Positions 6,411 to 23,694 of a stretch of DNA of 64,000 bases are shown piece after piece. Position numbers and translations under genes: made by a program. Source of the DNA: an uncultured Methanoregulaceae archaeon (GTDB taxonomy: Archaea > Halobacteriota > Methanomicrobia > Methanomicrobiales > Methanospirillaceae). Positions within the stretch are counted from its first letter, which is position 1; every line of letters starts with the position of its first letter. The notes beneath the pieces were generated by a model. It saw only the letters and a program-made list of their open reading frames with translations. It made no database searches and was not told the DNA's origin. The stretch covers positions 2,336,001-2,400,000 of the forward strand of contig OY969564.1 in the NCBI GenBank assembly GCA_963701095.1, written 5' to 3'.

Positions 6411-6414
6411 AATC

Positions 6415-6490: not shown

Positions 6491-6506
6491 GGGAATTTTT
6501 TCAGAA

Positions 6507-6546
6507 GACGCATCACCGGGGCTTTTCGCCCCTAGCCGCGTGGGCT
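6507..6546 (+). repeat. Dispersed hairpin repeat copy A
   Basis: GACGCATCACCGGGGCTTTTCGCCCCTAGCCGCGTGGGCT. Confidence 0.8.
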
Positions 6547-6724
6547 AACTCCCGGAGGTTTAGTCATTGACGAGTATTTTTCCTTAACCTCTCATTACAA
6601 AAACCAATTACTCCGGTATCCTTATTGTTGCTCTCCACGCTGGGAAATTTCTGAAGTATTGGGAAAAACGTACGAGATGGACAAAGTAACAGGATGAACT
6701 TTGTATCAAACCGGTTTCTGAACG

Positions 6725-6763
6725 TTAATGCACATAATGTGCATTAAGCGCTAAATGTGCATT
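6725..6763. promoter_or_regulatory. Perfect 23 bp palindrome plus third half-site; putative protein-binding site
   Basis: TTAATGCACAT-A-ATGTGCATTAA (6725-6747), extra AATGTGCATT at 6754-6763. Confidence 0.45.
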
Positions 6764-6776
6764 CGCTGACCGGGAA

Positions 6777-7248
6777 CTATGGAAGAACTGCCTGCCGCCA
6801 TTGATCGGCTGGTGTTTTTTTTGCATCGAGCCAATCGAAAAGGTTCATGGTAGGGCTGTCTTTGTGGAAGTATTCCGGGTTCACACAATCGGTGCCAACG
6901 GCCGACCAGGAGCCCCCCTCCATAAAATCAATTCGGACGTGTTCATCTTTTGTATTCACAAATATGATCTTGATGTTGGCATATTGCGTCCATTCTTTGG
7001 CTATATCCATGACTTTAGCCCGTTGCAAATCCTTACCGCCGATAAAGCGGCACTTCAACTCAAAACCCGCTGGCCACATTTTATTGTTTTGGATAGCCAT
7101 CAGCGGGACCGCAATACCCATCTTCGGGTTAACAGTACCGCTTAGTGCCATGCAGCGCTGCGGCGATATATGCCTGATGCTTCTTCGAATTTGCCACTTC
7201 TTTAGGAATGATACGATCGAAACAGATTTTAAGATTAGATTTCTTCAT
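6777..7248 (-). pseudogene. Truncated astacin/M12A-like zinc metallopeptidase
   Basis: N-terminus MKKSNLKICFDRIIP, then frameshift; W..G..L.CRFIGG, AKEWTQYANI, GSWSAVGTD, PTMN; stops at VLP* where VLHEFGH would be expected. Confidence 0.7.
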
Positions 7249-7434
7249 ACCGGTGGTCCTCCTTTTTCGATAACGAATTCCTGAGAAGAAACCCTGAGGT
7301 TCCTCCATAACATCTCCCTTTTTGGGTACCGAGAATATAATTATTAATAATATAATAACTAGCTCATGTTTGTACCGGATTTTCAGTTATTATAGAGAAA
7401 AAGCAATAATTCCTGAACTGATATATCTGGTTAT

Positions 7435-7665
7435 ATGGGATCGTTTGATCTCGAAAATTTCAAAACGATCAATACGATTATTGAGCGTGACAGCAAGGAC
7501 GCGACCTACAAGTTTGCCCTGTTACGCGGTGTCATCGAGATTTCGCAGGAATACCAGCAACTGGTAAAAGAATCCGGGGATCGTGTTTCGCTTCCTCTCG
7601 GTCTTCTCATTGAGAAATGCGCATATCTTATTGATGTCCGGGGGTTTGATGCATGGCGCCGGTGA
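7435..7665 (+). pseudogene. Internally deleted copy of the HNH nuclease gene (N- and C-termini only)
   Basis: Near-identical to 9560..10714 ends; 924 bp in-frame deletion at TGAGAAATG/TGAAAAATG. Confidence 0.9.
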
Positions 7666-8030
7666 AATGCCCGTTCTGTAATCCGCTGGCTGAAGATATT
7701 ATTGCACGGAACGATCTCTGTTATGCCCGCTGGGACCGGTTCCCGGTGAGTAAGGGGCATTTATTGATTATTCCGTTCCGGCATGTACCGGATTTCTTTT
7801 CAATGACTGTTGAAGAGAAACAGGCGATGGTTGGCCTGATTGATGCGTGCAAAGGTGTCATTGAGGAAAATTTCCAACCGGCCGGCTATAACCTCGGGAT
7901 CAACGTTGGCGCAGCGGCCGGGCAGACGGTGATGCACTGCCATTGCCATATGATCCCCCGGTATGCCGGGGATGTCCGGAACCCGAGAGGCGGTGTACGG
8001 GGGATTGTCCCGGGGAAGAAGGAGTATTGA
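7653..8030 (+). CDS. HIT family nucleotide hydrolase (copy 1)
   Basis: CPFC, PVSKGHLLIIP, histidine triad GQTVMHCHCHMIPR. Confidence 0.95.
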   Translation: MAPVKCPFCNPLAEDIIARNDLCYARWDRFPVSKGHLLIIPFRHVPDFFSMTVEEKQAMVGLIDACKGVIEENFQPAGYNLGINVGAAAGQTVMHCHCHMIPRYAGDVRNPRGGVRGIVPGKKEY

Positions 8031-8048
8031 TGGGGGATTTTTCTAGCG

Positions 8049-8087
8049 GACGCTCACCGGGGCTTACCGCCCCTTGACGCGTGGGCT
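8049..8087 (+). repeat. Dispersed hairpin repeat copy B
   Basis: GACGCTCACCGGGGCTTACCGCCCCTTGACGCGTGGGCT. Confidence 0.8.
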
Positions 8088-8157
8088 TTCCCCAAAGGGA
8101 TGGCAATGACGTGAAAAAAGATCCTCGAATGACAGTGCATCATAAAACCGGAAAAAC

Positions 8158-8235
8158 GATACACAACAGCTCTTGTGTATCACTGGTGAGACACAAGACT
8201 GCTTTGTGTCTCACGTTTGTATGATTATGATACAC
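8158..8235. repeat. Tandem inverted repeats built from a GA(T/G)ACACAA half-site
   Basis: GATACACAA-n6-TTGTGTATC; GTGAGACACAA-n7-TTGTGTCTCAC; extra TGATACAC at 8228. Confidence 0.7.
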
Positions 8236-8261
8236 TACGGTCCCGGACGATTATGGAAAAA

Positions 8262-9368
8262 TTACCAGCTGCTGCTCTCAGTGATGGCGATCAGCCGGGA
8301 GAATCGGTAAATCGTCGGGCTCGTTCCTTTCCCTTCCCGGGTTACCGTGAGGATATTCCCCGCTGTCAGCCCCTTCAGGACCCGGTGGGCGCTCGGCTTG
8401 GGAATTCCCGATTCCGCAATGAAATCGTAACTCTTGAAAATCGGGCGTGAGAAGAGCGTATCAATCGCCTTTATGGTATACTGCGAATGCGTTACCTCAG
8501 GGACTTCCTTTTTCATCTCTTCATAAAGCTCAATAATCGCCGTAGCTTTCTGGTTGTTCTCGGTCGCCTGTTCGATGAGCGCATGGAGGAAGAACCCTAT
8601 CCAGCCGTTCCAGTCGTTCTCACGGGAGATGGCAAGCAGCCTTTCGTAATATTCATCCCGGTGATGCTCGAGGTAAGCACTGATGTAGAACATCGGCGTT
8701 GAAAGGATCTTTTTGTTATAGAGGATGATGGGAACCAGCATCCGCCCGATTCTTCCATTCCCGTCGCGGAACGGATGGATGAGCTCAAACTGCGCTTTGA
8801 GTACCGCAAGCTGAACGAGCGGGTCCCGCTCTTCATTGTGCAGGTAATTCTCCCAGTTTGTGAGGGCATCCATAATGAGGTTCGGCGGGGGAGGAATGAA
8901 CGTGGCTCGTTCGATTGGCGTACCGTAAGGAGCGATGTAGTTCTGGATGCGGCGGATCTCCCCGGGCTCCCGGTCACGCCCCCGGACACTGGTCAGCAGG
9001 ATGCGGTGGAGATCGCGAATCATGTTTGTACAGATCGGCCGTTTTCCCAGATCCTCAACCGCAGCCCGCATTGCGGTCCGGTAATTGATGATCTCCTGGA
9101 TATCCAACCGTTTCTCCGGAGTAATCTTGTGTGCCTGGTCCGCTTCAAACTGCAGGACCTCTTCGAGGGATGCCTGAGTACCTTCTATCCGTGACGAGAG
9201 GACTGCTTCCCGGATGGCGAGCGGCGAAAGAAGGATCTCAGGATTGACAATGCCCTGGAGCAGGCCGTCATACCGGGCAAGGGCCGCATTCGCTTTACCG
9301 ATAAGGGGAATGTGTGCCATCCAGTCGATGTCATCGAGCGGGAGGGTCCGGGGCGTGTACGGCTCCAT
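8262..9368 (-). CDS. fic: Fic family protein (AMP transferase) with C-terminal wHTH
   Basis: Canonical HPFRDGNGRIGR; inhibitory motif SSRIEG; C-terminal HTH-like segment. Confidence 0.93.
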   Translation of the reverse strand: MEPYTPRTLPLDDIDWMAHIPLIGKANAALARYDGLLQGIVNPEILLSPLAIREAVLSSRIEGTQASLEEVLQFEADQAHKITPEKRLDIQEIINYRTAMRAAVEDLGKRPICTNMIRDLHRILLTSVRGRDREPGEIRRIQNYIAPYGTPIERATFIPPPPNLIMDALTNWENYLHNEERDPLVQLAVLKAQFELIHPFRDGNGRIGRMLVPIILYNKKILSTPMFYISAYLEHHRDEYYERLLAISRENDWNGWIGFFLHALIEQATENNQKATAIIELYEEMKKEVPEVTHSQYTIKAIDTLFSRPIFKSYDFIAESGIPKPSAHRVLKGLTAGNILTVTREGKGTSPTIYRFSRLIAITESSSW

Positions 9369-9559
9369 TTCTGACTTCAGTATAGTGTCTGGGAGAATAT
9401 TAGGTTTGGCAGAGGATTTACGAGGTTTTTCGACATTTCATTTGATGTGTGCTTCGTATCCTTATTGAAACCCGGGAATTTTACCCGTCGCTTATTCACG
9501 CTTTTATCCGGTTATTATAGAGGAAAAAGCAATAATTCCTGACAGATAAATCAGTTACT

Positions 9560-10714
9560 ATGGGATCATTCGATCTCGAAAATTTAAAGACTATCAATAC
9601 GATTATTGAGCGGGATAGCAAGGACACGACCTATAAGTTTGCCCTGTTACGCGGTGTTATCGAGATCTCGCAGGAATACCAGCACCTGGTAAAGGAATCC
9701 GGGGATAGTGTTTCGCTTCCTCTTGGTCTTCTCATTGAGAAATGGCTTTTGTACTATTATCCTGTCATTGAAAGCCAGGCATTTTTACCCCAACTGCATG
9801 GCGAGAAACCGGATTCTTTCCACAAGAGGATATCCTTCCGGCCGCTGTTCAGGGAAGTGACGGATTATTATGCAGGAAAGGGCGGCTTTTCGGCCTTCTA
9901 TAATGACTATGTGAATGGGTCCCTTGCTCCTGAAATTTCACCGGCTGTTTATGCATTGATTGCAAAAATCAGGACAACGATAACCACTATGCCTATGAAA
10001 CATCTCGGCCGCTCGCAGGGACACCGGGATTACTCTGTTTTTTCGTACAACAGGGATGCCCGCCGGATTCCCGCCGGGATGCCTGTTGGCCAGGAATCGG
10101 TTGTGCAATATTCCGGGACATTTTCTTTCCGGAAGGACCTTTTCCTGGTATTCCAGTACCTGGGCAGTTTCATCTCCGGTGATGATTCGCTGGTATACCA
10201 ATGGGCTGAGTTTACGCGTAAGGCAAGCGGGGGCACCCTTGCTGTTGCTGCGGTTATGGAAACATTGCGGACTATGCCGGAAACCGAAAGGGCGGTGAGC
10301 GAGGCCCGGCAGGTCTATACCCAGTTGTACCAGAACTATCACCATCTTGCATGCGTGTGGTCCGGGAAGCCGATCACGGATATGGGGCTGCTTCATGTGG
10401 ACCATATGATCCCGTTCTCGGTCTGGAAGAACAACAATCTCTGGAATTTGATGCCAGCATATGAGAGTATTAATGCAAAAAAACGGGATATGATTCCTTC
10501 ACCGGAATTTATTGAAAAAAGAGCGGATGCCATTGTCACGAACTGGAACAGTATGTACAAGGTCTATCCCAAACGGTTCTTGCGGGAGATTAATCTCGCC
10601 CTGGTCGGTTTGCCGGAGCAATCTTCTGGCTGGCAGGATGTAGCTTTGGAACGGCTCGGTGAAAAATGCGCATATCTGATTGATGTCCGGGGGTTTGATG
10701 CATGGCGCCTGTGA
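9560..10714 (+). CDS. HNH endonuclease domain protein with TYKFALL N-terminal domain
   Basis: CVWSG...HVDHMIPFS..KNNNLWNLMPA..SINAKKRD HNH motif. Confidence 0.85.
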   Translation: MGSFDLENLKTINTIIERDSKDTTYKFALLRGVIEISQEYQHLVKESGDSVSLPLGLLIEKWLLYYYPVIESQAFLPQLHGEKPDSFHKRISFRPLFREVTDYYAGKGGFSAFYNDYVNGSLAPEISPAVYALIAKIRTTITTMPMKHLGRSQGHRDYSVFSYNRDARRIPAGMPVGQESVVQYSGTFSFRKDLFLVFQYLGSFISGDDSLVYQWAEFTRKASGGTLAVAAVMETLRTMPETERAVSEARQVYTQLYQNYHHLACVWSGKPITDMGLLHVDHMIPFSVWKNNNLWNLMPAYESINAKKRDMIPSPEFIEKRADAIVTNWNSMYKVYPKRFLREINLALVGLPEQSSGWQDVALERLGEKCAYLIDVRGFDAWRL

Positions 10715-11079
10715 AATGTCCTTTCTGTAATCCGCTGGCTGAAGATATTGTCGCACGTAACGATCTCTGCTATGTCCGCTGGGACATATTCCCGGTGAGT
10801 AAGGGGCATTTACTGATTATTCCGTTCCGGCATGTACCGGATTTCTTTTTATTAACTATTGAAGAGAAACAGGCGATGGTTGCTTTGGTTGATGTGTGCA
10901 AGGGTGTTATCGAGGAAAATTTCCAACCGGCTGGGTACAACATCGGGATAAATATTGGCGCAGCAGCCGGGCAGACCGTGATGCACTGCCATTGCCATAT
11001 GATCCCCCGGTATGCCGGGGATGTCCGGAATGCACGGGGTGGGATACGTGGAGTTGTGCCGGGGAAGAGGGAGTATTGA
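10702..11079 (+). CDS. HIT family nucleotide hydrolase (copy 2)
   Basis: HCHCH triad; near-identical to 7653..8030; overlaps HNH stop. Confidence 0.95.
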   Translation: MAPVKCPFCNPLAEDIVARNDLCYVRWDIFPVSKGHLLIIPFRHVPDFFLLTIEEKQAMVALVDVCKGVIEENFQPAGYNIGINIGAAAGQTVMHCHCHMIPRYAGDVRNARGGIRGVVPGKREY

Positions 11080-11096
11080 GGGGGATTTTTTTAGAG

Positions 11097-11133
11097 GACG
11101 CTCATCGGGGCTCCGTCCCTTGCCGCGTGGGCT
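11097..11133 (+). repeat. Dispersed hairpin repeat copy C
   Basis: GACGCTCATCGGGGCTCCGTCCCTTGCCGCGTGGGCT. Confidence 0.8.
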
Positions 11134-11191
11134 AATTCGGGAGAATAAAAATTAGATAATTATTAACGGCTCTAACTTGTGATATTAAATA

Positions 11192-11605
11192 ATGACTGAT
11201 GTCTTGACCAAAGAGCAGCGGACATTTAATATGTCAAAGATCCGGGGAAAAAATACCGGACCTGAGATCAAATTAAGAAAAATGCTCTGGTCACAGGGCA
11301 TCCGAGGCTATCGCATCCACTATATACTGCTAGGCAAACCCGATATCGTCTTCACAAAAAAGAAAATCGCAATTTTTGTTGATGGCTGCTTCTGGCACAA
11401 GTGTCCAGTCTGCTTTCAGGCTCCTGAAACCCGAAAAGAATTCTGGATGAAAAAGATCCAGTCAAATGTCGACCGCGATAAAAAAATTAATGATAAGTTA
11501 CAGATTGACGGATGGACCGTAATTAGAATATGGGAGCATGAAATCCGGAAAGAACCTGAAATAGTGATTAAAAAATTAATCAAGAAAATGTCGATATCAG
11601 CTTGA
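11192..11605 (+). CDS. vsr: Very short patch repair endonuclease
   Basis: MSKIRGKNTGPE, GKPDIVF, FVDGCFWH, FW..KI..NV.RD, IWEHE. Confidence 0.95.
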   Translation: MTDVLTKEQRTFNMSKIRGKNTGPEIKLRKMLWSQGIRGYRIHYILLGKPDIVFTKKKIAIFVDGCFWHKCPVCFQAPETRKEFWMKKIQSNVDRDKKINDKLQIDGWTVIRIWEHEIRKEPEIVIKKLIKKMSISA

Positions 11606-11629
11606 CATGATTAATTATACCTTTAATCT

Positions 11630-13594
11630 TTAAATTTCCTCATCGCTATCATCGCCGCCGGACTTGCAAATATCGAGGTCTTCTCCTTGAGTTTTATCAT
11701 TTTCTAGGACAGTATCCTCTTCAAGAAGATATTTAATGTCCGGAATTATTGGATTTCCTGCTTTTCCAAAATATTCATCCCGTGTTTTAACAGATTCTTC
11801 ACTGATTAGCTCTTTTTTTAATGATTCCGGGATATCTATCCGGATTTTTTGGACCGATTTCCAGCATTCTTTCTTTTTACACCATTCGGAAATATTTCTT
11901 GATCCCGAAGGACCTTCGGTAATTGTGTTTCTGACTTCCGATGCCAGCTGACCAATAAATTTCTGAAGGGCAGGTGACAGATCCTGCTCCTTCCAGATTT
12001 TTTCAAGATCAATTCGTTTATTGGTCAATTTTGAAAGAATTGCAATAGTATAGGTCACATAATTTCCCTTGTATGGCCCGAAGTCCAGTTTCTTAATAAT
12101 TCCATCCGTTTTTTTGAACAAAATCGCTTTGGCTACAAGAAGCGAGAAGTAATACTTGTCGGGAATCTGAAGCGGACCTTTTTTTTGCTTTAATACAAAG
12201 GCACGGAAATTTTTCTGACTCCCAAGACTGACTATGTCAGGCATCTGATCCCACGAATTTTCATATTTTGCCAGATCTGTTTTTGTAAATCTCTGATGTG
12301 TCGGATTTTTGTCAGAAAAAATTGCTTTCAACTTCGGGGTCCTTTCTCTTTCTTTATCCACCTGATATTGCCCCCGTGCACGTTCATAGTACCAGTGCGT
12401 GTCCTGCTGACTCCCCTTTTTTGCAGGAGCCAAGACAGAACGGGACATTTTCTGGATTTCAATATGGAATTCTTCATTGGATACAAAATCCGATTCAGAG
12501 ATCCTATTCTGACTGTTAGCATATTGAGTGATTTTCGGGACGATAAATTTCATGTCGTTCTGATTTTTCAGAACTGTTAATTTGACCTGAACGAGAACTT
12601 CAGATATGTCACATTTTTCCTTAAAATAGGTATAGTGAATTGCTGCAGTAGTCTGACCGCCATTAACAATCTGAAAATCCCTGATCCAAGAAATGCCGGG
12701 AATACCGCAACTATTCTTTTCCAGTTTGACACACTCAGCAGTTGTCGAAATTCCGTTATTATATGCAAGGAACATGCAAGGTTCATTATGGATAGTTTCG
12801 CGGATTCCTTTGTTCACCTTTCCCTTCATTTGCAGGAATACCCGGATATTCCTTTCAAGAAGCTTTGGCCCGTATTTTCCATATAATTCGGCAACCATTT
12901 TTCCCGGCATTATTGCCAAGTATGATGTGTACCGGGGATTCTCGTTAGGCATTTCAAGACAGGTAAGAGGCGCCCCAAAATCCTTTATAAAATCTATCTC
13001 TATTGGTTCGGGCCGATTTCCTGAACTAGCAAGCCCGAACAATCGCTTTAAATCCCATATCTGATAAGAAATTCTGATTCCGTCTTCATTATCATCAGGA
13101 ATGGGCTCCGGTTTTACAATCCCATCTGTAATGATAAACAGATTTACACCAACGATATTTTCCCTGTTATTATAGATTGTATCGGCAAGATCAAATGCCG
13201 GATTTGATTCTTCAATTTTACCATATTTTTTATTAAGTGCGTTGGAAAGAAAGGTCCTGATCTTTTTGATATATGAATTGATATCAGATTTTGTTACCGG
13301 AATCCGGGAATATTCATTTGTGTAAACTGAAATGAAGAGATCAAAAAAAATCCCCTCTTTGTCACCATTGTTTTGAGTATTAAGGTTACTGTTATACGCA
13401 TTAATTTTGAAGCCTTTTCCTTCTAGGCGGCACAGAATATAATCTTCAATCACTGCAATATCTGTAAGATAATCAAGAAACTTTTCTGTGAACTGCTCTT
13501 CCATGAATGCTTCTGATTCGGGATCTTGGGCTGCATCAATAACATCCCGCTGAAAATTCTCGGCAAATTGTTCAAAATCACTCTCGTTGGTCAC
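11630..13594 (-). CDS. AIPR family protein
   Basis: LLERNIRVFL, FLAYNNGI, QIVNGGQT, ANSQN, WYYERARGQY. Confidence 0.92.
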   Translation of the reverse strand: MTNESDFEQFAENFQRDVIDAAQDPESEAFMEEQFTEKFLDYLTDIAVIEDYILCRLEGKGFKINAYNSNLNTQNNGDKEGIFFDLFISVYTNEYSRIPVTKSDINSYIKKIRTFLSNALNKKYGKIEESNPAFDLADTIYNNRENIVGVNLFIITDGIVKPEPIPDDNEDGIRISYQIWDLKRLFGLASSGNRPEPIEIDFIKDFGAPLTCLEMPNENPRYTSYLAIMPGKMVAELYGKYGPKLLERNIRVFLQMKGKVNKGIRETIHNEPCMFLAYNNGISTTAECVKLEKNSCGIPGISWIRDFQIVNGGQTTAAIHYTYFKEKCDISEVLVQVKLTVLKNQNDMKFIVPKITQYANSQNRISESDFVSNEEFHIEIQKMSRSVLAPAKKGSQQDTHWYYERARGQYQVDKERERTPKLKAIFSDKNPTHQRFTKTDLAKYENSWDQMPDIVSLGSQKNFRAFVLKQKKGPLQIPDKYYFSLLVAKAILFKKTDGIIKKLDFGPYKGNYVTYTIAILSKLTNKRIDLEKIWKEQDLSPALQKFIGQLASEVRNTITEGPSGSRNISEWCKKKECWKSVQKIRIDIPESLKKELISEESVKTRDEYFGKAGNPIIPDIKYLLEEDTVLENDKTQGEDLDICKSGGDDSDEEI

Positions 13595-14612
13595 ACAGAT
13601 CCCTCCCTAAACCTGACAAAAAATCTGCCTCGCTCACTCTAAATGGAATACACGAAGACAAATCAATGGTATAATGCACATCTCCCACTCCATTTCTCAA
13701 ATCATTTTCAATAATCCGGGGAAACTCATTTTTAACCAGAAAAATATGGATATCCCTGTCAACATAACCACGGGAATCATATTTTATCCTCTGTTTGTCG
13801 ATATATCCGGCTTTAAACAATTGCATCTCAAATTCGTGAACCGGACCTTTTTGTAAAGCAATCTGATTTCGGATTTGATCAATAATTGCAGGAAGTGTTT
13901 CCCCGGTTTCATTTACTTCATGAAGAGAAAGATGATAGATATAGAGTACATTTAATCCTGTATCATCCAGTTGCTGTTCACTGGCAATGGGAATTTTCTG
14001 GTGTTGTTTGGCAATATTTGTTTTCACTTCAACACCTATGCCGGATATCAGGAAATCCTGATTTCCTTTTGAAGGACCTTTCCATGCACGAATGGCTTTT
14101 TCAATTCCAATTCTCGGAAAAAGAATGTCCCGTAAAAACCTCATTTCCCCGTACAGACCCCGCTGATATTCGGGGCTTAAACCCTGCGATCCGAAAACAT
14201 CAAGAAAATGATGCCACATCAACAGACGTTCTATTATTCCTCGGACCATTTGCTTCTGATTCTTTTCCGAATTTGCTGTTTGATAAATATCTTCACAAAG
14301 CGTTGAAAAAATATCGGTAAAGGTCGGATCATTCAGAATAAAACCAACAATTAATGATCCTGGATTGTCATCGTGAAAATTCACGGGGGAAATATCAAAA
14401 CCCCGTAATTGAGGTAACGACCGGAATTCAGCGTAATTATGTTTTTCAACCCGAATGAGGAGCATTCTACGGTTTGCAGGTTTTTCATAACCAAGAAAAA
14501 TGTCATGAGATATATCGGGTGATATTCTTCGGATAATTATCCCATTTTCATCTTCGTTCGCGGATGACTCTTCCAGAATTTTCCAGATTGGATCAAATTT
14601 TTCAGCTGTCAA
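13578..14612 (-). CDS. PD-(D/E)XK motif protein (DUF4420 type)
   Basis: QRGLYGEM, WKGP...QDF...VEVKT, IASEQQLD. Confidence 0.88.
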   Translation of the reverse strand: MTAEKFDPIWKILEESSANEDENGIIIRRISPDISHDIFLGYEKPANRRMLLIRVEKHNYAEFRSLPQLRGFDISPVNFHDDNPGSLIVGFILNDPTFTDIFSTLCEDIYQTANSEKNQKQMVRGIIERLLMWHHFLDVFGSQGLSPEYQRGLYGEMRFLRDILFPRIGIEKAIRAWKGPSKGNQDFLISGIGVEVKTNIAKQHQKIPIASEQQLDDTGLNVLYIYHLSLHEVNETGETLPAIIDQIRNQIALQKGPVHEFEMQLFKAGYIDKQRIKYDSRGYVDRDIHIFLVKNEFPRIIENDLRNGVGDVHYTIDLSSCIPFRVSEADFLSGLGRDLCDQRE

Positions 14613-17346
14613 ATTCCTGCTCCCAATAAATGTTATTTACTTTATATGTGATTTTGACTGCTTTTTTGCTATCCGGGAAACTGAATGCAAGACCTATTAC
14701 AGGAATTTTTACATCAACTTTCAGCGGTTTTGGATCCAATGGATAAATTAGCAGAAGACCTCTTGTCGGGGGCCGTGCCGCTCGAATATAAGGTCCGCTT
14801 GGAATTGTTTTTTCATTAAATTCTTTATCGGTTCTATCTGGATCATTTTTCATCAACTCCAAGGCGAGTTTGTATTCCTCGTTTGTTAAATCAATAGATT
14901 CATGCCGTGGGCTGATGATTTGCGCCTTTTGCAGTATATAATTTTCATCTCTTTCGGTCAGACCTATAGTGTGACAATTGAAGTTGTATACATTTGCAGC
15001 TTTTTGTCGGCTAATCAGTGCAATAGTCCAAGATTTCAGTTCTCCAACTTCATTTTGCTTCTGAATATACTGGCGTATTAAATCCGGCCGTATTGTTTTC
15101 GAAAAAAACTGATACTCGTCAAGAATCTGAAAAATAATTTCTGAATTTATACCACTCCAGATTGGCGTATCACCCTTCATTGTTGAAGTGGTTCCCATTT
15201 TTTTAACAATATTTTCGATGCAGTTCAGATTATTCTCCAGAGTCATTGGGTCTTTGCTGAAAGATGTGGTCTGGGGTTTTGAATTCGAAAATGTACACTG
15301 CATTTCAGTACCGGATCTCATTTTGTTCACCGCAGTGATTTTCAGACCTTCCGGATGAGTTCTCACTCGGAGCCCATAATCCGCGGGGGTCGCTTTCAGG
15401 GATGCCATATAATCGAATTCATTTCGTAAGTCTTCCGAGGCCATGTTGATAAATGAATACCATTCAACAAGTTCATGTGAGGTATAGAGCCGGCATAAAT
15501 CAATATATCCCGGCCTGAATCCGAACCATCGTCCCATCTGCATCAAGGTATCGTACATTCGTGAAGCACGGAGATAGTAACTAACTGTGAGCCCTTCGAG
15601 TGTGAGACCGCGGGATAATTTATCTCCCCCGATTGCAATGATACTGATACCGTCCGGATTATCCTTGTAATCAAGGGCATCTTTAGCCGTTCCGTTAATT
15701 ATTTTTATTCGGATTTTTGCAGCAGCTGCATAAAGATTTGATTTTACTGAAGCCCAGTCAACATTCGTGAGAAGTGGATCATCTATGCGCCGGGTGATAT
15801 CCGCTGTTGTTGGTACATAGTCTTCCCGCCAGAGGTTTTCCATCTCCCGGTAAATGCTTGTTTCTGAGTCCGGGTTCTCATATTCTAACCGGCGTCTTTG
15901 GGCTGTAAGTTCAACACTAATGAGAGCTGCAAGTTTGTCCTGTACGGATATGTATCGTGTAACATGCACAAGCATAGAGTTATGACATCTTGTCTCGCCA
16001 CGAGATTTTCTAGCAGCACATGAAATAATGAACGCATTAATCGCTCTCTTTAGAGATTCTGGTAATTCTTCTGGATTGAAAAATTTTGTGTGTTTATCCG
16101 GTATTAATGTCTCATAATCTCGGATAATACGGATAATGGGTAACCCCGCTTCTTTTTCGGAATCCGGGTCATCGTCCTGTGTAAAGCCAAAAATTTGTGA
16201 AGGCCCCACATAATTAGGAGGAGGAGGAAGGTTGATTATAAAATCTCTTGGGAAAAGATCCTCACCATGCGTTGTTGTCTCTCCATCAGGATAAATAAAA
16301 ATATTTGCGAACGGCGTTGCCGTATATCCAACATAAGCACTTTTTTCGAAATGATGCAATAGCTCACGGATTTTTCCGTTGATTGCGCTGACATCATAAT
16401 CGGGGAGAGGACGATCGTTTTCATCACGTGGGATAGGATTCGTATTCACTGACGCATTATCTGCTTCATCATCAATAACAAGCAAAGGGATATTCCGGAC
16501 AACAATTTTATCTGTGTTCGGATCTCTCTGACCTTTGACACTAATCGCCCATTTGATAAGATTTGCTAAAACCGATTTCTGTTTTTTTACAACAAGGATT
16601 ACTGGATCAGTACCCCCCGGCAATACTCCGACTTGTTGAGCCACTCTTTTATTAAAATCTCCATTATCTTCACTACTGGTGAGAGAACTGACTGCAAATA
16701 ATTCCTCGCCGGGCAGTTTTCCGACCCCTGTTCGCAGATTTTCCGTATCGAATTTTCTCCCACGTCTTGTATCAAATCCCAAAAAACCTTCGTCAAGACG
16801 AAGCTGGGTTTGGCTTCTGAGGCTTTTATGCATCCCTGCAAGGACAATAACAAGTTTATATCCTGCATCCGCAGCTTTGCAAATCAGACCCGTGTAGTTG
16901 GAAGTTTTTCCGGACTGAACCTGCCCGACTACCATCCCCCTACGATCCCATTCACCTTCACGGAGTGGATACTCGAGGAGTTCAAGAACCTTGTCAGTGA
17001 GTTCATCGATACGGATAATTGATGATTCATGAATCCCCTTTTCTTCCATCAGATAGCGCTGGTATCTATTCCAGAATTTCCATTTTATCTGACTTTTTCT
17101 GTCAGGGAGCCAAGCAATATGGGTTTTCTGATTATCTTCAAGAATCGTTGCCCGGCCTTTCCAAATTTCACAGCGGGATTCAATGTCCCGGATCAGATAT
17201 TCGATATCAAACGGCTCAAAATTTTTTTCCTCCTTGATCATTGAAAGGACACGTTCACATTTTTGCCGGATAATCTCTACTGTCGGTGTTTGCTCACTCT
17301 TGAGCATTATGAGAACGTGCTGTCTTGCTTGATCAATTGAAGACAT
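14602..17346 (-). CDS. Z1-domain SF2 helicase-like protein/endonuclease
   Basis: GQVQSGKT, IDDEADNAS, YVGYTATPFAN, GGDKLSRGLTLEGL, DTLMQMGRWFGFR. Confidence 0.93.
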   Translation of the reverse strand: MSSIDQARQHVLIMLKSEQTPTVEIIRQKCERVLSMIKEEKNFEPFDIEYLIRDIESRCEIWKGRATILEDNQKTHIAWLPDRKSQIKWKFWNRYQRYLMEEKGIHESSIIRIDELTDKVLELLEYPLREGEWDRRGMVVGQVQSGKTSNYTGLICKAADAGYKLVIVLAGMHKSLRSQTQLRLDEGFLGFDTRRGRKFDTENLRTGVGKLPGEELFAVSSLTSSEDNGDFNKRVAQQVGVLPGGTDPVILVVKKQKSVLANLIKWAISVKGQRDPNTDKIVVRNIPLLVIDDEADNASVNTNPIPRDENDRPLPDYDVSAINGKIRELLHHFEKSAYVGYTATPFANIFIYPDGETTTHGEDLFPRDFIINLPPPPNYVGPSQIFGFTQDDDPDSEKEAGLPIIRIIRDYETLIPDKHTKFFNPEELPESLKRAINAFIISCAARKSRGETRCHNSMLVHVTRYISVQDKLAALISVELTAQRRRLEYENPDSETSIYREMENLWREDYVPTTADITRRIDDPLLTNVDWASVKSNLYAAAAKIRIKIINGTAKDALDYKDNPDGISIIAIGGDKLSRGLTLEGLTVSYYLRASRMYDTLMQMGRWFGFRPGYIDLCRLYTSHELVEWYSFINMASEDLRNEFDYMASLKATPADYGLRVRTHPEGLKITAVNKMRSGTEMQCTFSNSKPQTTSFSKDPMTLENNLNCIENIVKKMGTTSTMKGDTPIWSGINSEIIFQILDEYQFFSKTIRPDLIRQYIQKQNEVGELKSWTIALISRQKAANVYNFNCHTIGLTERDENYILQKAQIISPRHESIDLTNEEYKLALELMKNDPDRTDKEFNEKTIPSGPYIRAARPPTRGLLLIYPLDPKPLKVDVKIPVIGLAFSFPDSKKAVKITYKVNNIYWEQEFDS

Positions 17347-18874
17347 TAAGTGGCCTCACTTTCTTTAAACTGCATGAATTCTGTCACATATTTGGGATAA
17401 TCGGAAAACGGTTCCATATGAATCAGCCGCAATTTTGCATTTTCCGGGGATATCCCCGTGTTAATCATCGAACTCCAGATCTCTTCCAAAACACTTTTCA
17501 ATTCATCAGAGGGAGCACCTTCAAATGGTCGCTGGATTTTATCCGGATTATTCGAGCCATTCATGATTATCAGAGGGACCGGGACTGTTTCCTCGATAAT
17601 CCGAAGCATTGCCTGGATTTTTTTTCTTGACACTCCGGAATTTTGGAGGATATCAGAAACTAATGGATGATCCCGGTTAATGGAATAATGATAGTTTCCA
17701 TGTAGGACTAATGTAGACCAAGGGAATGTGATAGAAGATTCACTGGTTCGTTCTGCAACTTTTCCTCGAAAACGGAACACAGATATCGCTTTATCAATCG
17801 TAAGACGGGAGATGCGCTGAAAATCATCCCTGATAAGATTCGGAGGTCTGGCAACGGACTTCTTGACATCAATTTTCCAGTCGCCATCAAGCGAATTGGG
17901 AATATCAACCATTATACGGGCTAATTTGGTAAATTGTTCTTTTCTGATTGGCTGTCCCTTCATGGATTCCAAACCCAGCCAGTCCCCCGGAACGATCAGA
18001 CGTTCATTGCGATAAATATAGAAACCCTGACGTTCGTTCCATCCCCCGGACCCCCGGCTAGTTCATAAGTCTCGTCATCAAGTTTTGAACGATGAGGTAA
18101 AACAAAGGGTTGGATAGTGATTTTTTTACTATTATAGAGAATATTCTCATGGGGCAGATGTTGCGTTGACGGGTGATTCGTCAGAAACGGATCCCAAGGC
18201 TTTATTTCCCTGCCGTTAAGAATGATTTTCAAACTACGGGGTTTGACAAGAAATCGATGAAAAACCATTTCGAGGTGCTTTTTCATGATGTCAAGCTGCG
18301 CTAAAAAATGATCCTTGTGTTTTTTATTCGTAGAATCTGTCCCTTTCGTTATTCTGTCCATCTTTTCCCATAGGACAATTGTTCCACATTTCATATCATC
18401 AAGAACAGAAAAAACCGGGGGAATATTTTCTTTATTAGGTTTAACGAGACGCCACTCCCCACATAAATTTACGTAATCCAGATCCCAGAAACGGATAACC
18501 GTTTCATTCCCTTCGGATTTTGATCCCACAGTAAGTTTCCGACATTGTGAAAACGATGCTGTTTTCAATCCAAGACCAAATCTCCCGAGGTCTTTGGCAT
18601 CTCTTTCTTGGAGGGGATTTTTGCTCCCGGGTCGCATCGCATTTTTCAGAGCATTTTCGGTCATTCCATGACCATCATCTCTGATAGAAATCGTGGAATT
18701 CTCCCCATCCCATGTACAATCAATCCAGATATTCTGTGCCTCGGCATAAATGCTGTTATCAATTACATCTGCAACGGAAGTCTCAAGATGATACCCATAT
18801 GCCCGAAGTGTTTCAATCATCGCACCGGCGTCAGGGGATACAATATCATAAAAATCGGAAAGGGTTGTATCCAT
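17346..18874 (-). CDS. MORC/MutL-like GHKL ATPase, split by a 1-nt frameshift near 18045
   Basis: DVIDNS, DDGHGM, GRFGLGLKTASFS; adding one G to the G run gives GGPGGWNERQGFYIYRNERLI, joining ORFs 17996..18874 and 17346..17972. Confidence 0.9.
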
Positions 18875-18951
18875 TCAGATCATCACTATCGAGAGAGATT
18901 TTTTGTATATTGATAATTATAGTATGATCTGTATTATCTATTGTGTTTTAA

Positions 18952-20223
18952 TTATTCGGATGAGTTTAGCATTTTATATATTTTTTGGGCAATCCCCTCT
19001 GCCATCAATGGTGGAACAGCATTCCCTATCTGAACATATTTTGCAGATCGTGGTCCTTCAAAGAGATAATCATCAGGGAAAGACTGGATTCGTGCCGCTT
19101 CCCTTACCGTTAGTGATCGTGCTTGGGTTATATCGGGATGAATAAAATAATGACCATCTTTCGCTAGATGAGCAAGAATAGCATGAGAAACAGAATTTTT
19201 GTCTACCACCTTATATCGATCAAGAAATGCACCACGGTTTCGATGGGTTTTGAGTTCTTCCGGAAGATCATTATAATTTAATCTTTGACCGGATTTATCC
19301 CATTTTTTTATTACGATGCGATAAATTTCCCGATCTCTCTCGTTATGCCACCTTGCCTGATGATGGCGGACTTTACCGATTTCAGTTCTCATTTCTTTAT
19401 CGATTAGATATTTTGATTGGCGGCCTGTTCTGTAAGATTGTATACCATCATTGCCCTCACCGGCTTGGAGTCGGGGCAGATCAATGAGAAGATCTTTCAC
19501 TGTACCGGTATGTCTTTTACATGGAAATTCCGGATAACTGAAATCATCCTCTTTCCTCCAGCCAATGAAAATTATTCGCTGTCTGTCCTGCATCACTTCA
19601 AAATTTGATGCATTGAGAACATGAGCAGTTTTATCCAGATGATATCCGAGTCGGGAACATCCATTTATTACATCATTGAAAATAGTTCCTTTTTTCGCGC
19701 TGATGAGGCCGGGAACATTTTCAAAAATGAAAAGCCGTGGCTGAAACTCCTTTAAAAACTGATGATAATGCCGGTAAAGGTAATTTCTTGGATCATTCTC
19801 TGATTTCTTCCCGTTTTTTCCCCGACCAGCAAGAGAATAGGATTGACAGGGAGGCCCCCCGATAATGACATCAACATCAGATCGGTGATAACAGTTTTTC
19901 AGTGTCGATTTAAGATCTGCAATAATGGAATTATTTGCAGAATCTGATAACATTCTATTTATGACCCGTGGGGATTCGAACCCCTCCTCTTCTGACATTT
20001 GAATAAATTGCTCACGGTCAATTTCTCCCCGATAATATTGATTATAAAGAGCCGTTTTTCCGGCATCTTTGAGATTGTGATACAATATCCGAGTTTCCAG
20101 TGTATCGGCAGCATTTTTATCCATCTCGATGTGGCCTAGGAAATCAAAAGAATGCCGAACAAATCCTTCAGTTAGTCCCCCGCCTCCGGAGAACATATCG
20201 AGAACAAGAAACTTTGAAGGCAT
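18952..20223 (-). CDS. dcm: DNA (cytosine-5)-methyltransferase
   Basis: DMFSGGGG, GGPPCQ, FENVPG, QDRQR, REAARIQSFPD, QIGNAVPP. Confidence 0.96.
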   Translation of the reverse strand: MPSKFLVLDMFSGGGGLTEGFVRHSFDFLGHIEMDKNAADTLETRILYHNLKDAGKTALYNQYYRGEIDREQFIQMSEEEGFESPRVINRMLSDSANNSIIADLKSTLKNCYHRSDVDVIIGGPPCQSYSLAGRGKNGKKSENDPRNYLYRHYHQFLKEFQPRLFIFENVPGLISAKKGTIFNDVINGCSRLGYHLDKTAHVLNASNFEVMQDRQRIIFIGWRKEDDFSYPEFPCKRHTGTVKDLLIDLPRLQAGEGNDGIQSYRTGRQSKYLIDKEMRTEIGKVRHHQARWHNERDREIYRIVIKKWDKSGQRLNYNDLPEELKTHRNRGAFLDRYKVVDKNSVSHAILAHLAKDGHYFIHPDITQARSLTVREAARIQSFPDDYLFEGPRSAKYVQIGNAVPPLMAEGIAQKIYKMLNSSE

Positions 20224-20507
20224 TGTCTAGTTGTTTTTGCCAGGATTGATATTAATTGTGACTGTTTAAATTAATGGAAAAATCACTAACTGTGTTGTTA
20301 ATGTTCAGTGAAAGAGGATAATATTTGGTCATCCCAGCCACCCTATCAGGCACGCCATATATTTCCCGGACTAAGTTAGGAAAACAAAAACATTCCTTCT
20401 GCTTTCTCCCGGATGATCAGTTTGTTTTGTTCCAGTTTCGACAAGATGGTCTTGTCGAGTTTCATTAGCTGCCTGCTCTGGACGCCGCGTTTTTTCTCTC
20501 ACTCAAC

Positions 20508-20741
20508 TTAAGAGAATAACGTCTCGAACCCTTGCACATGCTGGTCCCGGAGAACTTCAAAGATATCTTTAGTTCTCATTGGTTTATCCTTCTTGTATAG
20601 GAACATGAGGATATACTTCCCATTTTCACCGGGCTGCATAAATGCAAAGTTAACTACCTCATTCACATCAGGAGTCTGGCAGATACTGCACCCGTGAAGG
20701 TTGACCTCTTCTCGGTCCGGCAAAATCCTTTGCCATAACAC
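20508..20741 (-). CDS. Hypothetical protein downstream of terminase, possibly a broken wHTH gene extending to ~20375
   Basis: ILMFLYKKDKPMRTKDIFEVL resembles wHTH helices; a downstream fragment reads MKLDKTILSKLEQNKLIIREK. Confidence 0.35.
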   Translation of the reverse strand: MLWQRILPDREEVNLHGCSICQTPDVNEVVNFAFMQPGENGKYILMFLYKKDKPMRTKDIFEVLRDQHVQGFETLFS

Positions 20742-20800
20742 AGTAAAGGTTAACGTCGTGCGACATCGCAGCCATCGTCATTCCCCCGCCTTCTGTCCTA

Positions 20801-22837
20801 TCAATGCGCTTGTCCTGGGAGGATGAAGGTTAAGGCATTCCTGTCTTCGGAAAAATCATCGTCCCATTCAGAATGTCGCCAGTAGTCATCGAGATCCCGG
20901 GTCTTCAGGTACGAAGAGTAGATCTTGTACGCAAGGTTAGCGATCATGTCTGGTCCCTCGCTGTTCGTCACCAGCCCGCTGCCCGGGTGACTGAATGTGA
21001 ATTTGTCGCCGGTCCACCGCTTCTGCAGCGCTTTCATTTCCGCAAGCAGCCGTTCATCGGCGGGGTACTTGATCTGCCCTTCGCGCATACGCTCCTCAAG
21101 GTTTTCGTATATCTGCATCTTGTGTTCCGGCGTGTACGGGGTTTCCTTCAGCCCGAAATCAAGGGCAAAGCGCTGCCTGACTATGCCGGTCGCATGCTCA
21201 TCATGAACTAGGGTTTGGACGCGGTATCCTTCGCACAGGAGATTGATATCGTACAGTGCCTTTTTCCAGTTGAGCTGGTTATCCTCCGGCAGCCAGTACC
21301 GGACCAGGTCAATAATGACCGAATCGCCTTCCATGTGACCGATGCAGAACCAAAGGACATCTCTGCGCCGGCTCGTACCAAGGGCTCCCTGATACTTGTC
21401 TGAGTACGTAAACGAAAACCACGATTCCTGCTGGCTGTTGCGGTCGACGAGTCCCGGGGAAAACATTGCATTCCGATCAGCGTTGTTTACCCCGAACGTC
21501 AGCATTAACGCATCAGCTCTATCAGGGCTGGACAAGCCCCGGCGTTTCATATCGTCTTTACTCTCGATCAGGATCTGTCCCCGGCTGTTGACCTTGTACC
21601 GGATGCCGGCCAGCTGGGTAACCAGAGCCTCATCATCAGGGATAGTGATATCACCAGACTCAAACCGGGACCGGAGAGCAAACCACCATTCAGCCCGGGC
21701 GTTCCCATACCGTTCCTTATTCTGGGCCGCAGAGCCGCTCTGCATCTCCACGACTGAAATCTTCTGCTCGTTAAGCCGGTCGAAGACACCGGCACCGACA
21801 CCAACACTATCGATCTTTGCAATGGTCGACCCCGTCTCACGCATGGCAAAAATAATCTCCCCGGCAGTGGTCATGGTATCGGACATCGGCAGCACCTTCC
21901 AGATCCGGGCCGCAGATCCCTGCCGGAGCATGATAACAGTCTCATCTCCACCGAACCGGGCAACATCAACACCGAGCTCCACCGGCTCCGTTGCATCAAG
22001 ATTCCGGTCAACCGCAGCCTCAATCCAGTGCAGAGGGATCAGGGTATTATCGCCAGAAGACGGGAACTGTGCAAGCACCTTGGAATGATACAGTGGTGAA
22101 TCGGTACCCCACTGCTTCACGCGGTCAGATACCCAGCCCGGCGAAACCAGGTACGGGGCTGGAAGACTGCCGGTAACCTTAGTCCCCCACGTACCGCTAA
22201 TGATATCCTGTTCCGTAATACCAAACCTGGTAAAGTTCGGGGTATCGTACGCCGATATCGTGATCTTCGATGCATGGGAGTTAGATGAAAACTCTTTGTA
22301 AAACCGGCCCGATGGGTTCAGCGGGTTACCTATCATCAGGAGACGAGATTCATCCGAGGTGAGCACACCATCAATTGCATCGAAAATATCTTCCGAGACA
22401 CCGCTGGACTCATCAGCGACTACGAGGATAAACGGTGCATGGAATCCCTGGAACTTATCACCGGCATGTTCCGGAGAGGTGAATCCCATCGCAAACCAGT
22501 CGTTACTGATCTTAAGTTCCTGCATCAGGCATTCCCCGTCTAACGGCACTTTTGCCCGCTGGAAACCAGCCCGGATCTCTTTCCAGAGGATCCCGGCAAC
22601 TTGGCGGTCGGTCGGGGCGGTCGTGATGACGATCGATTGAGGATGGTTGTACAAAAACCACAGCGAAGCATCGGCGGCAACGAAGGATTTCCCTGCAGCA
22701 TGACAACTTTTTACCGCAGTCACTTTATGATCCCGGATGCTTTCGAGGATTTGCACCTGCTTTTCCCATGGAGTATGGCCGAGCACTTCGCGTACCCAGA
22801 GCCCGGGGTCGAGAAGGTACCGGATTGCGCTTGTCAA
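20801..22837 (-). CDS. terL: Terminase large subunit with an additional C-terminal RNase H-like domain
   Basis: Walker A SCHAAGKS, Walker B ILVVADES, MIGNP, nuclease GVDVARFGGDE...SPDRADAL; likely TTG start at 22837 after GGAGGTG. Confidence 0.88.
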   Translation of the reverse strand: MTSAIRYLLDPGLWVREVLGHTPWEKQVQILESIRDHKVTAVKSCHAAGKSFVAADASLWFLYNHPQSIVITTAPTDRQVAGILWKEIRAGFQRAKVPLDGECLMQELKISNDWFAMGFTSPEHAGDKFQGFHAPFILVVADESSGVSEDIFDAIDGVLTSDESRLLMIGNPLNPSGRFYKEFSSNSHASKITISAYDTPNFTRFGITEQDIISGTWGTKVTGSLPAPYLVSPGWVSDRVKQWGTDSPLYHSKVLAQFPSSGDNTLIPLHWIEAAVDRNLDATEPVELGVDVARFGGDETVIMLRQGSAARIWKVLPMSDTMTTAGEIIFAMRETGSTIAKIDSVGVGAGVFDRLNEQKISVVEMQSGSAAQNKERYGNARAEWWFALRSRFESGDITIPDDEALVTQLAGIRYKVNSRGQILIESKDDMKRRGLSSPDRADALMLTFGVNNADRNAMFSPGLVDRNSQQESWFSFTYSDKYQGALGTSRRRDVLWFCIGHMEGDSVIIDLVRYWLPEDNQLNWKKALYDINLLCEGYRVQTLVHDEHATGIVRQRFALDFGLKETPYTPEHKMQIYENLEERMREGQIKYPADERLLAEMKALQKRWTGDKFTFSHPGSGLVTNSEGPDMIANLAYKIYSSYLKTRDLDDYWRHSEWDDDFSEDRNALTFILPGQAH

Positions 22838-22874
22838 AGCATGCACCTCCGGAACACCAAAAAATGCCCCGACA

Positions 22875-23369
22875 TCATATCCCCGCCTCCTCAAGCGCGG
22901 CCAAAAGTTCAGCATGGATTTCGGGATGTTTCGATAAAATACGCATGAGAACCGGCCACTCCGGGGACGTTGTAATAGTCTGGACGCCGACATTTACTTG
23001 GACGGCAGTCTGGTTTCTGGCATTCAGCTCCCCGGTAACCTGTCCCAGCAGCTCTACACAACCCCGGGCTTCCCGGATCGCACTTATTGCTGTCCGCAGG
23101 TCGCCGGCTGTCTCTGCCTTGTTCATGTACGAGATCGATTTGCTGAGGAGACCTTTTGTCCACTTTAGGAGATCCTCTCCATTGGCGATCTGTCGTGCCT
23201 CTTCAGCTTTTGCGACAGATGCCGAAATGTGACCAGCTTTTTGATGATCGTAGAGGCTGCTTTTCGTGGCACCGAATTGTTTAGCGATAGTCCGGAGGGA
23301 TGTACCTCTGATAATTTCCTGATCAATTTCTGTGCGACTTTTGTGTGCACAAATACAACATTTTTTCAT
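22875..23369 (-). CDS. Putative terminase small subunit (Cys/His + HTH N-terminus, helical C-terminus)
   Basis: CCICAH..R.EID..I..G.SLR.IAKQFG..KSSL..H; sits immediately upstream of terL. Confidence 0.65.
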   Translation of the reverse strand: MKKCCICAHKSRTEIDQEIIRGTSLRTIAKQFGATKSSLYDHQKAGHISASVAKAEEARQIANGEDLLKWTKGLLSKSISYMNKAETAGDLRTAISAIREARGCVELLGQVTGELNARNQTAVQVNVGVQTITTSPEWPVLMRILSKHPEIHAELLAALEEAGI

Positions 23370-23694
23370 TAAATCAACTCTTTTACAAAACACCCGGATT
23401 GCAAGTTGTAATCATACGAATACTATCAGGATCATTTTCCCGCGCATTGCCCGTCGAATGGAAAGTTCAGGTCGAAATACAAGAGCCTGAACTTCAAGGA
23501 AAAAGATGAGAAAAGCGCCTTTGTAATCGACAATGTCAAGCTGAAAACCGGGCATCGAATACGTTGGCGTTCCAGAAAATTATAAAGGTAAAATGAAATT
23601 CGGCAAAAACAAAAAAAAAGAGAAGAATCGATAAAAGAGGAATATATCAGGTTTTTTGCGGATTGCTCAAAATGCTCAACTATATTTCAGGGTA

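Follow-up and report, generated by a model that had tools for sequence, protein, structure and literature searches.

The window analysed here is a 64,000-nucleotide stretch of the genome of an uncultured Methanoregulaceae archaeon, and the subject of this work is an open reading frame (ORF) on its minus strand that encodes a terminase large subunit (TerL) with two nuclease domains. The front part of the protein is a TerL with intact ATPase and nuclease motifs; the back part, termed the tail, is, as judged by sequence and fold comparison, a second nuclease domain that comes from another TerL lineage and is catalytically impaired. Type A refers to the lineage of the front TerL and type B to that of the tail. 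The fused gene comprises the following parts:

20801..22993, minus strand: fused TerL ORF, with a longest frame of 730 amino acids (aa) and ~681 aa from the probable GTG start
22064..22831, minus strand: type-A TerL ATPase domain (residues ~55–310), with Walker A KSCHAAGKSF (95–104) and Walker B ILVVADESSG (189–198)
21494..22036, minus strand: nuclease domain 1 (residues ~320–500), with LGVDVARFG (D343), AKIDSVG (D395) and SSPDRADAL (D491/D494), all intact
21404..21493, minus strand: junction and linker (residues ~501–530), ...TFGVNNADRN / AMFSPGLVDRNS...
20873..21403, minus strand: nuclease domain 2, the tail (residues ~531–707), with the type-B TerL nuclease fold
21377–21379, 21200–21202 and 20957–20962, minus strand: codons of the domain-2 residues G539, D598 and S678/E679, respectively
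20804..20872, minus strand: acidic/aromatic C-terminal peptide (residues 708–730), EWDDDFSEDRNALTFILPGQAH, predicted to be disordered

The last ~225 residues of the ORF (20804–21478) match the C-terminal domain of a 541-aa type-B TerL, which is encoded at 108027–109649 of the same 2.63-Mb genome and preceded by a TerS gene (phrog_309), with 47% identity and an expect value (E) of 8e-61. A word-based homologue search with the tail returned 2 proteins only, and an exhaustive tail-only search of a 1.84-billion-protein library returned 73 proteins at E<=1e-3, most of them ~480–600 aa long and matching in their C-terminal third. When nine longer or top-ranking tail matches and the genome's own 541-aa TerL were scanned against PHROGs, all were assigned to TerL families. 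The AlphaFold2 model of the tail, built on a 74-row alignment, has a predicted local distance difference test (pLDDT) value of 88.5 and a predicted template modelling score (pTM) of 0.82. Foldseek found 56 PDB matches to the tail at E<=1e-3, and the top 16 were all TerL nucleases or whole TerLs, namely those of G20c, P74-26, HK97, D6E, Sf6 and E217 and the PhiV-1 terminase in the Avs3 complex; the best match was 5m1o_A (E 5e-10; template modelling score 0.78 by target). These results bear out the initial annotation of this DNA, in which the C-terminal region was read as a second RNase H-like TerL nuclease domain after a complete first one, and the contrary case of a tail without the terminase fold does not hold, as the fold found by Foldseek is that of TerL nucleases.

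In the tail tree, the tails and the nucleases of bona fide type-B TerLs form a 12-row clade with 100/100 support. By alignment and tree position, the tail is a nuclease domain from the type-B TerL lineage (L002, P0004, P0006); the earlier suggestion that two terL genes had been fused is thereby supported, the tail being derived from part of a different terL. A C-terminal motif, [ILM]x[GPA]GxxH, is common to the tails and the type-B TerLs and is kept in 14/14 clade rows with a complete C-terminus, although tail identities drop to 23–33%; the best-conserved segment of the tail is internal (tail residues 121–175), with 65–80% identity among the closer pairs. A recent internal duplication of domain 1 was considered and rejected, since a BLASTP comparison of domain 1 with the tail gave an E of 7.5. 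The tail-family profile matches domain 1 weakly (E 3e-4), and the non-significant BLASTP result together with this weak profile match indicates that domain 1 and the tail belong to one superfamily and are only distantly related within it.

The catalytic columns were read from the 74-row alignment, in which 65 rows are neither fused nor short; among these unfused full rows, motif I is D in 62/65, motif II is D in 65/65 and motif IIIb is D/E in 64/65. In the window tail, the Asp that closes β1 is replaced by Gly539, where 63/74 rows have D, in agreement with the initial annotation, which had seen the first catalytic Asp replaced by Gly. Asp598 of motif II is kept (D in 69/74), conservation is lower at S678 (D in 59/74), and E679 lies in a column with D/E in 67/74. 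The accompanying claim that the terminal DD had become SE stands for S678, which departs from D, and overstates the degeneracy for E679, which is no defect in itself because the bona fide type-B TerL of the same genome also has DE at this place. The complete acidic triad is therefore absent from the window tail, with the β1 Asp lost, D598 kept and E679 a conservative change; judged by these residues, the tail is catalytically impaired, and domain 1 is the only complete nuclease because the tail has lost the β1 catalytic Asp. The other tails read as follows:

P0003 tail: motif I G, motif II kept, motif IIIb E
P0005 tail: motif I C, motif II N, motif IIIb E
L032/L116 tail: motif I G, motif II G, motif IIIb R
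L113 tail: motif I D or V by alignment, motif II P or C by alignment, motif IIIb A
G195 tail: motifs I and II lost, motif IIIb not counted
P0088/P0027 tail: motifs I, II and IIIb all lost
Stand-alone domain P0009: motif I G, motif II kept, motif IIIb A
Stand-alone domain P0007: motif I G, motif II kept, motif IIIb deleted

Every fused or stand-alone tail, those of the five fused homologues besides the window included, lacks at least one of the three catalytic residues, and all three are kept in the 4 bona fide type-B TerLs and 8 outgroup TerLs compared.

The front part of the protein is recognised as a phage TerL by PHROGs over residues ~58–513 (phrog_2, E 2.5e-36). With the fused ORF as query, tblastn matched 987 phage records, the best being a Methanosarcinales virus with 44% identity, and 0/987 of these records cover >=80% of the query. 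Pfam gave 0 families for the whole protein and for the tail, plus one chance-level match. Walker A, Walker B and the three acidic motifs of nuclease domain 1 are identical or conservatively changed relative to unfused relatives, D343, D395 and D491/D494 are kept in every fused or unfused relative that covers those positions, and domain 1 aligns with the E217 and Sf6 TerL nucleases. The full-length model (pLDDT 84.2) has three folded domains, with a folded ATPase at residues 55–310 and an identical order of strands and helices in domains 1 and 2; its inter-domain arrangement is unreliable (pTM 0.51). The true start of the TerL is probably the GTG at 22846 (codon 50), which gives ~681 aa, because three observations agree: residues 1–50 of the longest frame have a pLDDT <50 in the full-length model and are predicted to be disordered, L115, an unfused relative, carries an in-frame stop where codon 47 would lie and begins at the codon-50 GTG, and the homologue P0089 begins at the equivalent of residue ~52. 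The first ~49 codons (22847–22993), which overlap the TerS-like ORF, are thus probably untranslated.

The fusion is not confined to a single assembly. The homologue search proposed in the initial annotation recovered the same two-domain tail in P0003, P0005, L113, L032/L116 and G195, and the fused forms are:

L112: metagenome contig, ~100% identity to the window, fused
P0003: 75% identity to the window, fused
P0005: fragment, fused
P0008 / P0089 / L113: 55% identity, fused
L032 = L114, and L116: same ORF sequence, fused
G195 (L218): same-genus genome with a 697-aa ORF, 58% identity, fused

A 728-nt contig from an independent peat metagenome spans the junction (21111–21838) with 0 differences and, together with the diverged fused homologues, rules out an assembly chimera, which the initial annotation had named as a possible source of the fusion. 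A 224-nt RNA-library contig covers 21419–21642, and in 3 metatranscriptome runs the gene is covered in part by RNA-library contigs, which is no demonstration of transcription as DNA carry-over is possible; a 3-kb stretch or part of it is present in 20 runs from 13 studies (bog, peat, wetland, soil). The fused architecture is rare, being found in 5/189 fetched TerL-A loci with 3 distinct sequences including that of the window; the P0001 query found the fused form in 0/150 other family genomes, and the P0088 query found it in 2/228 family genomes, this one included. The TerL-A relatives tabulated from the first 109 loci end 0–46 residues past the nuclease domain, with L032, L067 and L087 as the exceptions. 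L067 (an IMGVR contig) has a 1115-aa ORF at 3737–7081 with 217 residues beyond the nuclease domain, and L087 has a 941-aa ORF at 9875–12697 with 103 residues beyond it; neither extension matches the tail profile, and they may be other kinds of extension or inteins. L203 was the only locus obtained from the viral-contig scan with a 5-row tail alignment and carries an ordinary type-B TerL.

The site of joining can be placed closely. The junction ...DALM.FG-x(5-7)-A[MA]FS... is common to 6/6 fused sequences aligned, while unfused relatives run 22–39 residues past DALM.FG and several of them end in Trp; at the junction, the A-type C-terminal peptide has been swapped for the type-B inter-domain linker. 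In a blastn comparison of the window with L115, homology extends up to 21492 and resumes at 20267, and the two loci are syntenic over TerS-TerL-Dcm, with protein identities of 77% for the TerS-like protein, 84% for TerL-A and 79% for Dcm; one flank matches too. The cassette and the small ORFs concerned are:

20268..21491, minus strand: 1224-bp cassette (tail domain, small winged helix-turn-helix ORF and spacer), which replaces 406 bp of L115
20508..20741, minus strand: small ORF of 77 aa inside the cassette, with a weak winged-helix match (PF22665, E 6e-4, under the curated cut-off)
22875..23393, minus strand: TerS-like ORF of 172 aa (Cys-x2-Cys and helix-turn-helix), with its stop 29 nt upstream of the probable TerL start; its sole family match is a weak HTH_7

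On the evidence of these alignments, the fused gene arose by recombination, in which the type-A C-terminal peptide was replaced by a type-B nuclease domain and its C-terminal peptide. In the TerL-A tree, the fused cores fall into two groups, {window, P0003} and {L113, L032, G195}, inside a 7-row clade, and the unfused L115 is nested with {window, P0003} (100/99). Monophyly of the fused TerL-A cores was rejected by the approximately unbiased test (p-AU 0.0016), the group having been chosen after a first tree; the tail tree, whose interior is an open polytomy, neither backs nor excludes a single fusion origin. The last ~50 residues of P0003 are 69% identical to the type-B TerL versus 40% to the window tail. 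P0088 (Methanoregula sp., WP_428371873.1) is a 404-aa protein without an ATPase, in which an intact nuclease-only TerL-like domain (phrog_27743, E 4e-34) is followed by a dead tail, and it is colinear with residues 340–730 of P0001. The degenerate type-B domain also occurs alone, as a cluster of 12 members of 212–216 aa (P0009, P0077–P0087), one of which is present on 20 contigs, the longest of 50.6 kb. The mosaic end of P0003, P0088 and the stand-alone forms together characterise the tail as a mobile, recombining C-terminal module. Compared with the decoy or DNA-binding role suggested in the initial annotation, the evidence leans more to an add-on of this modular kind that retains the type-B end peptide.

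The ratio of nonsynonymous to synonymous substitutions per site (dN/dS) was estimated by the Nei–Gojobori method (NG86). Between the window and L115 it is 0.12 for TerL-A (dS 0.86), 0.18 for TerS and 0.076 for Dcm. In the fused pairs, dN is 0.69–0.97 in the tail versus 0.13–0.24 in the core, and no reliable dN/dS can be given for the tail because dS is saturated in 5/6 pairs; L032 and L116 are identical over the ORF and hence uninformative, and P0003 and P0005 were not in the DNA comparisons. The path length between the window and P0003 is 0.11 for the core and 0.73 for the tail. The tail frames nevertheless remain open at this synonymous saturation, where neutrality would, by a rough estimate, predict several stop codons. 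Variant contig 1 has 5 synonymous and 2 nonsynonymous codons in the tail (7 of 14 differences counted), and its synonymous changes include L595 to E599, spanning motif II; variant contig 2 has 2 synonymous and 6 mostly conservative changes (11 of 14 differences counted). The open frames, the confident fold and the conserved C-terminal motif argue against neutral decay, and, on these comparisons, purifying selection continues to act on the window copy.

Fused copies elsewhere have compact layouts, and in three of the loci fetched the fused gene adjoins integrase or D5-like helicase genes. The gene orders are:

L113: integrase, HNH, 321-aa ORF, TerS-like, fused TerL, protein X
L218 (G195): D5_N/DUF5906 helicase, TerS-like, fused TerL, protein X
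Protein X, directly downstream of the fused TerL: L218:6326–6937, L032:1940–2686, L116:1557–2303, L113:6165–6797

The TerS-like gene, the fused TerL and protein X are syntenic in three lineages, and the position and N-terminal motif of the TerS-like protein recur in L218 and L219. Protein X has ~200–250 aa and a charged, coiled-coil-like C-terminus, and has no match in Pfam, PHROGs or the atlas; the L218 protein is 71% identical to that of L032 and 33% identical to that of L113. No portal or capsid match was found on the contigs of L113, L032, L116 and L218, which are 3–9 kb long. The unfused L003 and L004 have the same helicase-TerS-TerL layout with D5_N/DUF5906 helicases, and L004 is a roughly 14-kb island that carries an integrase and a tape-measure-like gene; the contigs span 3–21 kb, and element borders are defined only roughly, in L004. 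In the complete virus vir525, an unfused TerL-A homologue belongs to a module with a gene annotated as portal. A split terminase operon is seen in a relative from the family, L219 (G096:C1:60001-75000), at 4967–8247, where a TerS-like ORF is followed by an ATPase-only TerL ORF (276 aa) and then, in tandem, by three ORFs that encode a nuclease alone (242, 204 and 223 aa), each with intact acidic motifs; nuclease-only ORFs of this type, ~200–270 aa long, were found in 18/227 other family genomes searched.

The window copy is placed differently. Downstream of its TerL lies a cluster of Dcm, HATPase, Z1, DUF4420 and AIPR genes, and upstream lie an unassigned 212-aa ORF and the genes of a DUF5683-like protein, a GNAT acetyltransferase and a Kelch-repeat protein, none with a viral match; no portal, capsid or tail match was found by PHROGs and Pfam among the larger neighbouring ORFs scanned, at ~1–53 kb. 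The window copy lacks its element and is flanked by host-like genes and a defence cluster.

The same genome also carries type-B packaging genes:

G000:C1:97038–136000 (loci L204–L206), outside the window: tailed type-B provirus

Its genes include an integrase, a ParB-like protein, TerS, TerL-B, the major capsid protein, connectors, a tail tube, a tape measure and a distal tail protein, and a viral contig (L203) is 88–93% identical to part of it. The portal of the provirus is split into ORFs of 343 aa and 248 aa, compared with an intact 596-aa homologue (98% and 94% identity), and ~10 kb with kinase/TPR genes, a DNA methyltransferase and a transposase intervene between its packaging genes and its head genes. 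When the tail was modelled in complex with the intact type-B portal homologue P0090, the score was 0.00 in both runs, which weighs neither way.

It has been reported that the portal is bound by the C-terminal end of TerL in T3, lambda, SPP1 and P22, whereas in phi29 and HK97 the nuclease domain touches the portal (PMC13595956). In view of these published contacts, the simplest reading is that the module switches the motor over to type-B proheads, and we tentatively infer, from comparative analysis, that the tail may be a non-catalytic adaptor of this kind, a reading that we favour while holding it to be somewhat less than an even prospect. The dead domain would sit on the prohead side of the active nuclease in the terminase ring and would present the type-B C-terminal docking peptide, so that the A-type TerS/TerL pair of a small, capsid-less integrated element could load the DNA of the element into the proheads of a type-B virus. 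The outcome would be capsid piracy, with a logic comparable to that of phi29 gp16, whose vestigial nuclease domain contacts the portal/pRNA (packaging RNA). More broadly, and this we regard as doubtful, the dead type-B domain might be a mobile prohead-docking adaptor, encoded alone or fused to various terminase nucleases, by which capsid-less archaeal elements connect their own packaging motor with the portals of unrelated helper viruses; virus satellites would then exist in methanogens.

Several observations weigh against the adaptor reading. No integrase, helicase or protein X was found near the window copy, and the lack of capsid genes is a weak negative because PHROGs and Pfam cover archaeal virus proteins poorly. 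The type-B provirus is probably defective because of its split portal and ~10-kb insertion, the last 50 residues of the window tail are only 45% identical to the provirus TerL-B, and G195 has a fused TerL, yet the query used turned up no type-B TerL in it. The tail is dispensable for the lifestyle of a small element, as the unfused L003 and L004 occupy similar elements, and the domain is able to act without a covalent link, as stand-alone forms exist. The dN of the tail, ~4–5x that of the core, is also compatible with relaxed constraint, and we know of no solved precedent for an extra domain ring between nuclease and portal.

Alternatively, the dead type-B domain could serve packaging interference, as a defence decoy, kept by the host or by a resident element, that competes with an incoming type-B terminase for the portal or for DNA ends and so spoils the packaging of type-B viruses. 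The window copy and the unfused L115 both adjoin the Dcm/HATPase/Z1/DUF4420/AIPR cluster, the fast evolution of the tail and its mosaic C-terminus are as expected in conflict, stand-alone dead domains occur, and purifying selection acts on TerS and TerL at a locus that has no capsid genes; but L115 holds the same position beside the defence cluster without a tail, the other fused copies are not beside recognised defence genes, and the intact ATPase and nuclease motifs are strictly kept, though needless for a decoy. We think a decoy unlikely; interference and piracy are not mutually exclusive. Rather unlikely, too, is a regulatory or DNA-handling partner in cis, in which the dead domain would pair with domain 1, like the inactive paralogues of other nuclease pairs, or grip DNA, and would tune the site and timing of cleavage with no part in the choice of prohead. 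The tail comes from a foreign TerL lineage and is not a duplicate of its partner nuclease, the C-terminal peptide of type B persists even at a core identity of ~25%, and no confident inter-domain contact is predicted at the low pTM of the full-length model, all of which speak against such a partner. The fused tail is, on the other hand, always directly behind a TerL-type nuclease domain, even in the ATPase-less P0088, other multi-nuclease layouts exist in the family (the tandem ORFs of L219), the best conservation of the tail is internal and not C-terminal, and the C-terminal domain of phi29 binds DNA despite lost catalysis (PMC7672431).

It is also conceivable that the fusion is a relic without function, produced when two decaying proviruses were joined in frame by accident, and is now on its way to being lost. 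The window locus is orphaned, without structural genes, integrase or helicase, its close relative L115 has no tail, the catalytic residues decay in differing patterns, and the tail evolves much faster than the core. Against this stand six diverged fused lineages, P0088 and the 12-member stand-alone cluster, all with open frames even where synonymous sites are saturated, as well as the confident fold prediction, the conserved C-terminal motif and the low dN/dS of the TerL-A core and TerS at the same locus (0.12–0.18), and such a relic is very improbable.

The window TerL resembles the TerLs of Caudoviricetes (HK97, P74-26/G20c, Sf6 gp2) in its intact ASCE (additional strand, catalytic E) ATPase and RNase H-like nuclease and in the TerS-like gene upstream. 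Ordinary TerLs have one nuclease domain, whereas the window TerL has two; the TerL of vir525 sits in a portal-bearing module, whereas in the window no portal gene follows. In the literature searched, which was mostly without subscription journals, neither a TerL with two nuclease domains nor a pseudo-nuclease add-on was found to be described; phi29, with its one vestigial nuclease, offers the nearest parallel. In phi29 gp16, the Asp at the end of β1 is replaced, and nuclease activity is lost and DNA binding kept (PMC7672431; Mahler et al. 2020), and the vestigial domain lies on the portal/pRNA side of the motor (PMC13595956). Both proteins retain a TerL-type RNase H-like domain without the β1 Asp; the vestigial domain of phi29 is its sole C-terminal domain and is structurally reduced, whereas that of the window is a full-size dead domain that stands behind an active nuclease and belongs to another TerL lineage.

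The putative fused-TerL elements may be comparable with satellites, which are small integrated elements with an integrase, a primase-helicase and their own packaging-specificity genes and have no full virion module, and a need for helper proheads may be supposed. Staphylococcus aureus pathogenicity islands and phage-inducible chromosomal islands (PICIs) redirect packaging via TerS or Ppi/Rpp systems, via TerS-binding proteins or via capsid remodelling, and capsid-forming PICIs have their own TerS and TerL. The satellite-like traits are the integrase in L113 and the D5_N/DUF5906 helicases in L218, L003 and L004, neither of which is near the window copy; the fused-TerL elements, moreover, are archaeal. 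No report of a satellite TerL with a helper-type pseudo-nuclease was found in the literature searched. Pairs of active and inactive nucleases exist elsewhere, as in FANCM–FAAP24, where an active domain has retained an inactive paralogue at its side; the folds and systems are other ones, and the case is an analogy only.

The TerL surface that selects the portal is still poorly resolved. In the fused TerL, nature seems to have swapped the portal-selecting surface as a module, with cutting and docking separated in an active-plus-dead tandem. If the adaptor reading is true, the module would offer a direct handle on TerL–portal specificity, a new route of molecular piracy at the TerL–portal interface, and candidate satellite-like elements among the methanogens that live in peat and wetland soils. 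Should the adaptor reading be wrong, the protein would still be the first case found, within that same body of literature, of a terminase with two TerL nuclease domains.

The defence-type cluster beside the fused gene occupies 11630–20223 on the minus strand and encodes a Dcm C5-methylase, HATPase_c_3, Z1, DUF4420 (PD-(D/E)XK) and AIPR. Its HATPase region consists of two ORFs (292 aa and 208 aa) in the window versus one 522-aa ORF in L115, and L115 carries a Vsr gene, none of which was seen among the window ORFs scanned. The GC content falls to 38–42% across 12–20 kb of the window, and next to the cluster, at 8262–10714, a Fic/DOC protein (368 aa) and a protein with an HNH_4 endonuclease domain (384 aa) are encoded.

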